A stretch of DNA of 64,000 bases from Escherichia coli. Lineage in GTDB: Bacteria > Pseudomonadota > Gammaproteobacteria > Enterobacterales > Enterobacteriaceae. The translations under genes and the position numbers were made by a program. Below, piece by piece: positions 42,421-48,073 of this stretch. The DNA lies in assembly GCF_030013205.1 (NCBI RefSeq), contig NZ_CP122648.1, one strand, 5' to 3'. Numbering within the stretch: the first letter of the stretch is position 1; each line of letters starts with the position of its first letter. The notes under the pieces are model-generated. The model did not search any database, had not been told where the DNA came from, and saw nothing but the letters and a program-made list of their open reading frames with translations.

Positions 42421-42508
42421 GTCGGCGGATGCGGCGCGAATGCCTTGTCCGCCCCACAACGCACCACAATCGTAGGCCTGAGAAGACGCAACAGCGTCGC
42501 ATCGGGCA
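42421..42508. repeat. BIME (two REP units) between yebF and yebE
   Basis: cggcggatgcggcgcgaatgccttgtccgcc and gtaggcctgagaagacgcaacagcgtcgcatcgggca. Confidence 0.6.
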
Positions 42509-42722
42509 ATCAGCGTCAAACAGTGCCACTCAAAACGTCAAACTACTTTCACCTAAAATACCCTTATCACCTGATATACAGTAAACACCTTACCTGGCGC
42601 GAATTTCTTTGAATAACGGTCTACCGCCCCGCTTATTTTCGCATCTTTTGTCTCGATATACATTTTCTGACATCCTCATCCGCTATGCTACAGGCACTAA
42701 AAATGGTTATTGAGGAGCAAAT

Positions 42723-43382
42723 ATGGCTAACTGGTTAAATCAACTGCAATCCCTGCTTGGGCAAAGCAGTTCTTCTGCCTCCTCGTCTGCGGATCAGGGA
42801 TTGGGCAAACTTTTAGTGCCAGGCGCATTAGGCGGACTGGCTGGGCTGCTGGTCGCAAATAAATCAGCACGTAAATTTCTTACGAAATATGGCACCAACG
42901 CGTTACTGGTTGGCGGCGGAGCGGTCGCGGGTACGGTGCTGTGGAATAAATACAAAGATAAAATTCGCGCGGCGCATCAGGACGAACCGCAGTTTGGCGC
43001 GCAAAGTACGCCGCTGGATGAGCGTACGGAACGTTTGATCCTTGCGCTGGTCTTTGCCGCTAAAAGTGATGGTCATATTGATGCCAAAGAACGTGCGGCA
43101 ATCGATCAGCAATTGCGTGAAGCCGGTGTGGAAGAACAGGGGCGTGTACTCATTGAGCAGGCAATCGAACAACCGCTGGATCCACAACGCCTGGCTACCG
43201 GGGTCCGCAATGAAGAAGAGGCGCTGGAAATCTATTTCCTGAGCTGCGCGGCTATTGATATTGACCATTTTATGGAACGCAGTTACCTGAATGCACTGGG
43301 TGACGCGCTGAAAATCCCCCAGGACGTTCGTGAAGGCATTGAACGCGATCTCGAACAACAAAAACGCACTTTGGCGGAATAA
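42723..43382 (+). CDS. yebE: Inner membrane protein YebE (DUF533)
   Basis: 219 aa; [25 protein letters not shown]... Confidence 0.9.
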
Positions 43383-43545
43383 TTCCGCTCTCTGGATAGC
43401 CTGAAGTTGACTATTTCGGGCTATCCAGAACCGCACAGCCATTTGAGCAGGCTGATTTTCTCTGTCTGCATAACATTCGATATCCGCGCCATTACCTGTC
43501 ATCATGTGACTGCTCCCCGCCCTGTCGGGTGAGGCTTCCCACTTC

Positions 43546-44715
43546 TTAAGCCGCAACCGTCTGTGTGACGGATTTACGCTGGCCTCCATGGGCAGAAACG
43601 ACGAGTCCCGCCGCTTGTAATTCCAGTATGCCCTTGCGTTTGATGTTGAGCGCCGCGTTGATATCGCGGTCATGTTCAACTCCACACTCTGGACACTGCC
43701 AGATGCGCTTATGTAATGGCATCTCCGACATTTTGTGACCGCAGCAGTGGCAGGTCTTCGAACTGGCGAACCATTGATCCAGTTTCACCAGATGCACACC
43801 TTTCTCTGTTGCTTTGTATTCCAGTTTTGTGATGAATCCAGACCATCCAGCATCGCCTATCGCACGAGCCAGATGGTGATTTTTCATCATATTTGCCGTT
43901 TTCAATGTCTCGACAATTACCGCTTGGTTTTCGTCAACAATTGCGCGAGATAACTTGTGCTGGAAATCGGCACGGGCACTGGCTACCCGTTCGTGAACGG
44001 CTGCAAGTTGTATTCTGGCTTTGCGCCTGTTTGCGCTCCCTTTTTTCTTACGGGACAGTGCTTTCTGCTTCCGGCGCAGGTTGCGACTTGCATTGATTAG
44101 GTGGCGGGGACTGGCAATTTTATTGCCGTCCGATTTGATGACAAAATGCGCCAGCCCCATATCCAGCCCTGTCACATTTGATATCAGTGCGGGCTTTGCC
44201 GGCGCTTCCATCCCGTCGTCACAGAGTAACGACGCGTAGTATTTCCCGGTTGCGCTGCGGCTCAACGTGATACTTTTCAGCATTCCCGTAATTTCACGAT
44301 GTAAACGCGCCTCAATCGGCAAGATTTTCGGTATTTTTATCGCACCATCAAGGACTTTTATGCCAACACAATGATAGCTCGATTGTCTGCCGTGTTTACT
44401 TTTAAAGGTTGGTTTACCTGCTTTCAGTTTCGGATTGAAAAAGTTAGAAAAAGCCACGTCGAGGTTAATTACCGCCTGCTGCAACGCAATAGAATCATAT
44501 TCTTTAAGCCATCCATACCGGCGGGATTTCTTCGCCACTGCAAGCAGTGGTTTGAGGTCTTTACGCGGGTTTAAATTTACGCGGTGCCGCTGGTAAGAAT
44601 GTTTCTTGATATGCAGAGCTTTGTTGTACGCAAAACGCACTGCACCGAACTGGGCGTTGATAAATTCAGCCTGTTCTGGTGTCGGGTAGATGCGTACTTT
44701 TGTTGCTCTTAACAT
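43546..44715 (-). CDS. tnpB: IS605-family TnpB (RuvC-like RNA-guided endonuclease, OMEGA effector)
   Basis: 389 aa; RuvC-I GLDMGLAHF, RuvC-II AVIVETL, zinc finger CHCC...CPEC, RuvC-III HDRDINAALNI; looks intact. Confidence 0.85.
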   Translation of the reverse strand: MLRATKVRIYPTPEQAEFINAQFGAVRFAYNKALHIKKHSYQRHRVNLNPRKDLKPLLAVAKKSRRYGWLKEYDSIALQQAVINLDVAFSNFFNPKLKAGKPTFKSKHGRQSSYHCVGIKVLDGAIKIPKILPIEARLHREITGMLKSITLSRSATGKYYASLLCDDGMEAPAKPALISNVTGLDMGLAHFVIKSDGNKIASPRHLINASRNLRRKQKALSRKKKGSANRRKARIQLAAVHERVASARADFQHKLSRAIVDENQAVIVETLKTANMMKNHHLARAIGDAGWSGFITKLEYKATEKGVHLVKLDQWFASSKTCHCCGHKMSEMPLHKRIWQCPECGVEHDRDINAALNIKRKGILELQAAGLVVSAHGGQRKSVTQTVAA

Positions 44716-44771
44716 AATCAGCGCTCATTGATATAATGCTTTTATTTTAACACTTTAGGTGAATATATCAA

Positions 44772-45197
44772 TTGAGTAATCATGATGATTTACTGGCGGG
44801 ATTTCTCCGCAAACGACACAGTGTCAGTAAGCTGGTTGTGCACCTTATTTTTACGACAAAGTATCGACGCAAACTATTCGACAGTCAGATGATCGCTCAG
44901 TTGCGTGAGGCTTTTGGCTCCGCTGCGGCAAAGCTTGAATGCGAAATTATTGAGATGGACGGGGAGCCAGACCATGTACACCTGCTGGTTGCCTACCCGC
45001 CAAAACTGGCGGTCAGTGTGATGGTCAATAATTTAAAATCGGTATCATCACGTTTGCTACGCCAGCAGAACGCGCATTTACGTATGCAGAGTAAAACGGG
45101 GCTTTTGTGGTCGAGATCGTACTTTGTCTGTAGCACCGGAGAGGCAACGATTGAAACGCTCAGAGCCTACGTTCAGAGTCAGTCAACACCTGATTGA
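44772..45197 (+). CDS. tnpA: IS200/IS605-family transposase TnpA (Y1 HuH)
   Basis: 141 aa; HuH motif HVHLLV, catalytic-Tyr region WSRSYFVCSTGEA; first in-frame start is TTG, so start uncertain. Confidence 0.8.
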   Translation: MSNHDDLLAGFLRKRHSVSKLVVHLIFTTKYRRKLFDSQMIAQLREAFGSAAAKLECEIIEMDGEPDHVHLLVAYPPKLAVSVMVNNLKSVSSRLLRQQNAHLRMQSKTGLLWSRSYFVCSTGEATIETLRAYVQSQSTPD

Positions 45198-45326
45198 TCT
45201 TTAAAGCCCTGCGGGCTTTTCGCCTTATATCCCCGCCCGCATTGGGCGAGGGTTTACGGCGTTTTTCGCTAAGCAATGACTACCCTGTTTCGCTTGCATC
45301 TCCGGTGAGTTTTGCCACCCTTATAA

Positions 45327-48073
<2,747 letters not shown>

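Follow-up and report, generated by a model that had tools for sequence, protein, structure and literature searches.

Between the host genes yebE (42723-43382, plus strand) and ptrB (45354-47414, plus strand), the window, by which we mean the whole 64-kb stretch of Escherichia coli DNA that was analysed, carries two extra genes, tnpB and tnpA. Both are intact and divergently oriented, tnpA on the plus strand and tnpB on the minus strand, and they belong to an insertion sequence whose minus strand is the "top" strand, with the left end at 45268 and the right end at 43506. The first-pass annotation had already recognized the tnpB-side end of a transposon here, with tnpB on the minus strand, and on both points it was right. 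The features of the element are:

43506-45268, minus strand: IS200/IS605 element (ISEc46 family in RefSeq), 1,763 bp, delimited from the K-12 empty site, RefSeq and the conservation of its ends
44715-43546, minus strand: tnpB, 389 aa, RNA-guided endonuclease; open reading frame with a match to NCBIfam guided_TnpB at 342 bits (cut-off 100)
44772-45197, plus strand: tnpA, 141-aa Y1 (HUH) transposase; open reading frame, RefSeq label and a match to NF033573 transpos_IS200 at 141.8 bits (cut-off 55)
44744-44771, minus strand: candidate tnpB promoter TTGATA-16-TAAAAT in the tnpA-tnpB spacer, from a consensus scan only

An ISEc46 element between yebE and ptrB

The element shows the hallmarks of the IS200/IS605 family, namely a Y1 HUH transposase, insertion between yebE and ptrB without target duplication (K-12 empty-site alignment), subterminal hairpins instead of inverted repeats, and insertion 3' of a fixed motif. 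At the identical locus of K_EC180, RefSeq labels the two products "IS200/IS605-like element ISEc46 family transposase" and "RNA-guided endonuclease InsQ/TnpB family protein"; proteins alone are annotated there, and an RNA feature is absent. Our literature searches on ISEc46, IS609 with TnpB, TnpB with a TTAG transposon-adjacent motif (TAM), and TnpB with ISEc returned nothing on this element.

TnpB aligns with ISDra2 TnpB (8bf8/8exa/8h1j) over residues 4-380 (E=3.6e-74), keeping the equivalents of ISDra2 D191, E278 and D361 together with a CxxC..CxxC zinc finger, and its RuvC motifs pair with those of 8bf8 as GLDMG/GVDVG, IVE/GTE and HDRD/HDRD. Judged by its RuvC triad (D-E-D) and zinc finger, the protein is predicted to be catalytically intact. 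The promoter-like site at 44771-44744 is the likely source of a precursor transcript; the consensus scan of tnpB gave one weak promoter-like site inside the gene, at 43913-43886, and no strong internal promoter, and the scan for terminators gave none 3' of the right end.

Counting a match when at least 80% of the query region was covered, we found the insertion between yebE and ptrB in 448 complete E. coli genomes out of 5,426; those of the rest that were sampled have the empty site. ISEc46 also occurs at other sites in further E. coli genomes. The leading regions of plasmids hold related copies made up of tnpB alone, placed between psiA and ardA.

Element ends and target motif

The boundaries were set by comparing the window with the K-12 empty site, ...CCTGTCATCAT|CTAAGCAATG..., which reads ...CATCAT|CTAAGC... 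across the junction and leaves 43506-45268 as the inserted DNA. The tnpB-side end at 43506 is reproduced by related copies, all of which stop at ...AGCAGTCAC| and then run into unrelated flank (about 70 independent insertions). The copies compared were ISEc46-like elements at other E. coli chromosomal and plasmid sites, plus about 70 further loci from Photorhabdus, Serratia, Rahnella, Idiomarina, Halomonas/Vreelandella, Shewanella, Vibrio and others, with TnpB identities of 63-99%. The end first placed near 43496 thus moves by 10 nt. The sequences at and just outside the two ends are:

45231-45268, minus strand: left end CGAAAAACGCCGUAAAC with the hairpin CCTCGCCC-AATGC-GGGCGGGG (45251-45231), conserved in other copies
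45269-45272, minus strand: transposon-adjacent motif 5'-TTAG (CTAA on the plus strand), directly 5' of the left end and present in the K-12 empty site
43486-43505, minus strand: guide-equivalent flank AUGAUGACAGGUAAUG(GCGC), directly past the right end, native yebE-ptrB intergenic DNA

Read in the orientation of tnpB, the element starts with CGAAAAACGCCGTAAAC, followed by the left-end hairpin, which is a near-twin of the right-end hairpin on the same strand. The 4 nt outside the left end are TTAG in 38 of 42 independent insertions, TCAG in 3 and TTCG in 1, and positions farther out are unconstrained across the same 42 flanks. The three TCAG flanks form an E. coli plasmid/norW subgroup, and all three copies carry GAAC 5' of the left-end hairpin. 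A strict covariation of TTAG/TCAG with these 4 nt (AAAC/GAAC) was considered and rejected, as one copy combines GAAC with TTAG.

In minus-strand orientation, the empty site of K-12 is TTAG|ATGATGACAGGTAATGGCGC, in which the motif leads straight into the sequence bordering the right end when the site is occupied. Since TTAG lies 5' of the left end, the empty site TTAG|ATGATGACAGGTAATG is the motif joined to a match for the putative guide. The TAM 5' of the left end is at the same time the target of TnpA, and the donor joint, TTAG|ATGATGACAGG by the K-12 empty site, unites TAM and guide match; within the 64-kb window, TTAG followed by the guide target is found nowhere else. The guide-equivalent flank, AUGAUGACAGGUAAUGGCGC, runs on the minus strand from 43505 to 43490 (16 nt) or to 43486 (20 nt), and by analogy with ISDra2 and AmaTnpB (PMC10097598, PMC10278001) it would be used as the guide. 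A guide at 43476-43499 had been proposed earlier; its origin in the native yebE-ptrB flank stands, while its coordinates were off by 6-10 nt.

A covarying structure at the 3' end of tnpB

From an alignment of 71 distinct copies, covering the final 200 nt of each, we derived a consensus fold with RNAalifold; the window copy is numbered along the minus strand with 43506 as -1. The consensus contains five main stems, all within the last 111 nt:

43506-43621, minus strand: putative omega-RNA scaffold; covariance-model match 43621-43506, paired core 43616-43506 (-111 to -1)
43596-43616, minus strand: stem 1, AAGCGGC (43616-43610) with GUCGUUU (43602-43596), alignment columns 106-112/120-129
43538-43592, minus strand: stem 2, CCCAU (43592-43588) with GUGGG (43542-43538), enclosing stems 3a and 3b
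43584-43578 with 43554-43549, minus strand: stem 3a, inside stem 2
43571-43567 with 43561-43557, minus strand: stem 3b, inside stem 2
43515-43534, minus strand: stem 4, the right-end subterminal hairpin CCUCACCC-GACA-GGGCGGGG, 43534-43527 with 43522-43515
43604-43607, minus strand: GACU, the stem-1 loop strand of a candidate pseudoknot, with its partner AGUC at 43511-43508 (-6..-3), beside the putative guide

This region lies on the sense strand of tnpB, overlaps the last 23 codons of the gene (367-389, stop 43548-43546) and the 40 nt of non-coding right end, and has its 3' limit exactly at the right-end boundary of the transposon. Its 5' limit, first put at about 43700, lies some 80 nt farther in: conserved structure begins at about 43616-43621, and the earlier limit was dropped because the consensus fold has no supported structure 5' of 43621, 43622-43700 being ordinary coding sequence. 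The hairpin that had been pointed out just past the tnpB stop is stem 4, at 43534-43515 on the minus strand, 12 nt after the stop codon, and it is followed by a 9-nt tail, AGCAGUCAC.

Compensatory double changes occur in 17 of the 35 predicted pairs and in each of the five stems. Stem 1, whose loop is GGGACUC (43609-43603), has them in 4 of 7 pairs; stems 2, 3a and 3b together in 10 of 16, with 97.9-99.7% paired; and stem 4 in 3 of 7 counted pairs. Standard pairs fill 97.9% of the cells, against 30-50% when the 3' partners are slid by 1-3 columns (32-54% in the same control with the pseudoknot included), and the pairs score 0.338 for covariation, where slid partners score 0.109 at most. None of 500 column shuffles reached the observed value on any of five measures. 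Conserved G·U pairs, for example at columns 108-124, 111-121 and 193-225, would turn into A·C if the opposite strand were read, and the structure therefore belongs to the tnpB-sense strand; such wobble pairs suit RNA better than single-stranded DNA. Covariation in stem 4 is by itself no argument for RNA, because TnpA also needs this stem as single-stranded DNA. Probably it serves both proteins, TnpA as DNA and TnpB as RNA.

Constraint on the nucleotide sequence points the same way. Where tnpB overlaps the scaffold, the entropy of third codon positions falls from 1.21 to 0.80 bits with positions 1 and 2 barely changing, and conservation is highest of all in the 40-nt non-coding tail (0.26-0.39 bits). 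In a marine subgroup of six copies, a 1-nt deletion in the stem-1 loop means that the scaffold is crossed in another reading frame, and the pairs are still kept, which points to selection on nucleic-acid structure and not on the C-terminal peptide.

The contact between the stem-1 loop and the 3' tail is less firmly established. GACU and AGUC are paired in 97.1% of cases across the 71 sequences, with one pair broken in 5 of them, and both sides are nearly invariant, with no compensatory change. This candidate pseudoknot is consistent with the data, not proven, and its position mirrors the pseudoknot of ISDra2 (PMC10097598). RNAalifold offered a different partner for the tail, a long-range helix between its GUC and the GAC of the catalytic Asp codon (columns 51-53); it lacks covariation, its sole varying position tracks a synonymous C/U change, and we rejected it in favour of the stem-1-loop pairing, which fits the ISDra2 structure better.

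Folded as a single sequence, the window copy returns the identical stems at its minimum free energy; the energy itself is not significant, with z=-1.3 to -1.6 (-1.26, and -1.57 for a longer piece), and it is the comparative evidence that is strong. A covariance-model search had been proposed at the outset. Among the 4,227 families of Rfam 15, searched on both strands of 42500-46000 at E<=1, no omega-RNA-like family matched; the lone match, mir-4662 at 43391-43429, falls on the yebE terminator palindrome and is spurious. In turn, a model built from 47 relatives, with E. coli sequences and the window left out, gave one match in the 64-kb window, full length, at 43621-43506 on the minus strand (121.3 bits, E=9e-27). 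A motif search of the window likewise gave a single scaffold copy.

A variant pair in stem 4

The only non-standard pair in the covariance-model match is an A·C at 43530, where the window copy has A for G on the minus strand in place of a stem-4 G-C pair. Of 71 relatives, 69 have a standard pair here; the change lowers the stability of the hairpin from -17.3 to -11.9 kcal/mol, a cost of 5.4. The A is found in 8 of 469 E. coli records with this end; the carriers among the matches listed (7) are K_EC180 and six swine ETEC isolates. As stem 4 is also the right-end hairpin of TnpA, excision and RNP assembly might both be influenced.

A probable omega-RNA of the ISEc46 TnpB

We interpret 43621/43616-43506 on the minus strand as the omega-RNA scaffold of the ISEc46 TnpB, with the flank 43505-43490/43486 as its putative guide, and give this reading a probability of roughly 0.85. 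The original proposal of an omega-RNA at the 3' end of tnpB and the adjacent IS end, taking its guide from the flank, is thereby supported by the element boundary, the covariation, the ISDra2-like architecture, the TTAG motif and a TnpB that appears intact; the scaffold is conserved, and the end at 43506 is not far from 43496.

The covarying stems could also be nothing more than a single-stranded DNA signal for excision and integration by TnpA, with no functional RNA made. The left end contains, on the same strand, a near-twin of stem 4, in keeping with the ends of IS200/IS605 elements, and TCAC, the last 4 nt of the element, together with GAAG, the tetranucleotide 5' of the hairpin, presumably match the cleavage-site/guide scheme of IS608. 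However, a subterminal hairpin and a few flanking bases suffice in IS608-type ends, whereas here four more stems that covary are located in tnpB coding sequence, 45-111 nt into the element, and the left end is without a counterpart of stems 1-3. The inner stems, moreover, correspond position by position to the RNA stems bound by protein in ISDra2 (PMC10097598), and we consider a purely DNA-level role very improbable. Slightly harder still to credit is a structure of the tnpB mRNA 3'-UTR, a terminator or stabilizer with no guide role. The GC-rich hairpin 12 nt past the tnpB stop is what such a structure would look like, but it is not followed by a T-run and the scan matched no terminator, on which grounds its identity as a terminator was rejected; conservation runs 9 nt beyond the hairpin and halts exactly at the transposon boundary, and most of the structure lies within the coding region.

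A further reading, unlikely in our estimate and yet the one to which we give most weight among the alternatives, accepts the omega-RNA gene as genuine by descent and takes the window copy to be weakened or inactive: a fixed, vertically inherited insertion in which the mutation at 43530 impairs excision, RNP formation or both. That the insertion occupies the same site in 448 of 5,426 genomes fits this, as does a G-to-A change seen in just 8 of 469 records that breaks a pair standard in 69 of 71 relatives at a cost of 5.4 kcal/mol. On the other hand, tnpA and tnpB are intact, the other seven pairs of stem 4 still fold (-11.9 kcal/mol) and the covariance model still scores 121 bits, while ISDra2 tolerates trimming of its scaffold (PMC10097598).

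Proposed mechanism

For an omega-RNA that acts with the ISEc46 TnpB, transcription, processing, TnpB binding, cleavage and homing can be sketched by analogy with characterized relatives. From the tnpB promoter or an internal one, a transcript would run through tnpB, past the right end and into the flank. TnpB would then trim the 5' side of its own mRNA, leaving a scaffold of about 111 nt that retains stem 1 and its pseudoknot with the 3' tail, stem 2 around 3a and 3b, and stem 4. In published work on TnpB orthologs, the 5' side of their own mRNA is trimmed, the 3' sequence is left untrimmed, and the proximal 12-16 nt serve as the guide (PMC10278001, PMC10097598). Excision of the element by TnpA as single-stranded DNA would reseal the donor site to TTAG|ATGATGACAGGTAATG, the transposon-adjacent motif with a perfect guide match. 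The TnpB-omega-RNA complex would cleave the site emptied in this way, after which the element would be restored by recombining with a sister copy, as described for the IS605 family, where TnpA excision leaves a scarless donor joint (TAM plus flank) that is cut by TnpB-omega-RNA before recombination restores the element (PMC10690162, PMC11870625). The sequence prerequisites for this mechanism all appear to be present in ISEc46.

The ISEc46 RNA is a well-supported, ordinary case of a known class, and it simply confirms the established TnpB/omega-RNA model. It adds a probable, unannotated non-coding RNA gene to a common E. coli insertion sequence. For a gammaproteobacterial TnpB clade near ISDra2 it provides exact boundaries, a structure backed by covariation, a calibrated covariance model and a likely TAM, TTAG; our literature searches and Rfam 15 yielded neither a publication nor a family for this clade. 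The system is open to testing in its native host, where interference, homing and the effect of the natural stem-4 variant can be followed, and it could give the toolbox a compact TTAG-specific nuclease.

More speculatively, and with the odds well against it, the chromosomal copy of ISEc46 might be both a drive and a barrier within E. coli, specific for one allele: its omega-RNA would be aimed at TTAG+ATGATGACAGGTAATG, the empty yebE-ptrB allele of about 90% of sequenced E. coli. Were this true, empty alleles would be cut and converted on arrival, be it by conjugation, transduction or recombination, and the plasmid tnpB-only copies between psiA and ardA would do likewise in plasmid competition. 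In a lesser variant of this idea, the A·C mutation in stem 4 of swine ETEC would immobilize the element with guide function kept, an early step of domestication.

Comparison with known systems

The closest known counterpart is ISDra2 of Deinococcus radiodurans (8H1J, 8EXA, 8BF8), whose omega-RNA consists of a 116-nt scaffold and a 16-nt guide (Nakagawa et al., PMC10097598). The two share the order of the stems at near-identical positions and a scaffold of about 111-116 nt, as the following positions show (ISDra2 from PMC10097598):

Stem 1: ISDra2 -116..-111/-91..-86; ISEc46 -111..-105/-97..-91
Pseudoknot: ISDra2 -5..-3 with -103..-105, in the stem-1 loop; ISEc46 candidate -6..-3 with -102..-99
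Stem 2: ISDra2 -35..-32/-81..-84; ISEc46 -37..-33/-83..-87
Stem 3a: ISDra2 -77..-71/-42..-48; ISEc46 -79..-73/-49..-44
Stem 3b: ISDra2 -70..-49; ISEc46 -66..-52
Stem-4 tetraloop: ISDra2 -20..-17; ISEc46 -21..-18

As in ISDra2, the RNA would lie on the tnpB strand, with its scaffold ending at the right-end boundary and its guide in the flank, and the ISEc46 scaffold covers only the poorly conserved C-terminal tail of TnpB, whose codons are dispensable in ISDra2. Differences concern the TAM, TTGAT in ISDra2 and TTAG in ISEc46 (TCAG in one E. coli subgroup); the stem-1 loop, of 19 and 7 nt, respectively; and the tnpB stop, at -10 in ISDra2 and at -41 in ISEc46, so that 40 nt of the ISEc46 scaffold are non-coding. 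Unlike in ISDra2, tnpA is divergent in ISEc46, and the ISEc46 RNA is predicted from sequence.

IS605 and IS608 of Helicobacter pylori, which transpose by "peel and paste", resemble ISEc46 in their Y1 HUH TnpA, the absence of inverted repeats and of target duplication, subterminal hairpins on one strand and insertion 3' of a fixed tetranucleotide. In IS605, tnpA and tnpB are divergent, as in ISEc46. The target motif is TTAC in IS608 and TTAG in ISEc46, and the end sequences differ too.

The omega-RNA logic proposed for ISEc46 is shared with AmaTnpB and 59 orthologs (PMC10278001) and with CboIStron/IS605 homing (PMC10690162), which involve an omega-RNA processed from the 3' terminus of tnpB mRNA, a TAM that is also the TnpA target, and an RNP that cleaves the donor joint. 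In the survey of PMC10278001, the orthologs from E. coli and Salmonella are not of the ISEc46 type but of a different TnpB lineage (MKRLQAFKF...), an ortholog with a TTAG TAM has a scaffold sequence unrelated to that of ISEc46, and only 27 of the 59 TnpB orthologs surveyed cleaved double-stranded DNA. Lastly, the Cas12f sgRNA (tracrRNA:crRNA) resembles the ISEc46 scaffold in its equivalent of stem 4 and in a guide-proximal pseudoknot, a candidate feature in ISEc46 (PMC10097598), but it originates from a CRISPR array and functions in immunity, with a spacer that is acquired, whereas the putative guide of ISEc46 is fixed by the insertion site.

Variation across the scaffold and right end

The structured RNA at the tnpB 3' end overlaps the C-terminal codons of the gene, and its pairing persists through changes in reading frame. 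In a Shewanella/Vibrio/Idiomarina subgroup (L054, L057, L058, L060, L063 and L064), a 1-nt deletion falls in the loop of stem 1, the 5'-most scaffold stem, as located in the last ~120 nt of each element, and all RNA pairs are retained although TnpB ends in another reading frame across the scaffold. The C-terminal tail of TnpB carries a premature stop in a further copy, L021.

Within the right-end hairpin (stem 4), a lineage-specific G-to-A change at window position 43530, minus strand, creates an A·C mismatch with a penalty of ~5.4 kcal/mol. Among 469 E. coli records the A variant is present in just 8, seven of which are listed, namely K_EC180 and six swine ETEC isolates. K_EC180 and the window are identical across the IS, despite the annotation of the K_EC180 ptrB (L002:2588-3151) as a frameshifted pseudogene; the window ptrB ORF (45354-47414) is intact and encodes 686 aa.

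Chromosomal flank and doubtful source labels

One further structure lies at the yebE side of the insertion:

43391-43429, plus strand: near-perfect palindrome TCTGGATAGCC...GGCTATCCAGA, immediately 3' of the yebE stop

This palindrome is probably the yebE terminator stem, and an Rfam match to mir-4662 over the same positions is spurious, its 21 bits falling short of the gathering score, which is 97. The enterobacterial IS also turns up in L012 (whole contig) and in L014, two contigs whose labels assign them to Collinsella sp. and Candidatus Paceibacterota MAGs. The flank in L012 is exactly the E. coli yebE-ptrB flank, and both contigs look like binning contamination.

Plasmid-borne derivatives and left ends

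Reduced forms of the element occur on plasmids:

L005:920-2255 and L004:926-2255: tnpB-only derivatives without tnpA, on E. coli plasmids
L011:2001-2038: solo right-end remnant of 38 nt (stem 4 plus tail), on plasmids, close to hok

In both derivatives tnpB lies immediately downstream of the left end and the TAM is TCAG; one is located between psiA and ardA, in a conjugative leading region, and another adjoins MarR/KilAC genes. The flank of the remnant hardly differs from the one beside L004, the intact plasmid copy. Since an annotated IS3-family element lies just upstream of the remnant, the element may have been cut by that insertion.

Left ends vary as well. An Idiomarina loihiensis copy (L085, ~626-690) has two left-end hairpins spaced ~45 nt apart, so its left end appears to be partly duplicated. 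GAAC replaces AAAC directly 5' of the left-end hairpin in all three TCAG-TAM copies (L004-L006), and because the left end of L072 combines GAAC with a TTAG TAM, this association is not strict. The co-occurrence of GAAC with TCAG is as would be expected if TnpA reads its target via IS608-type pairing between guide and cleavage site.
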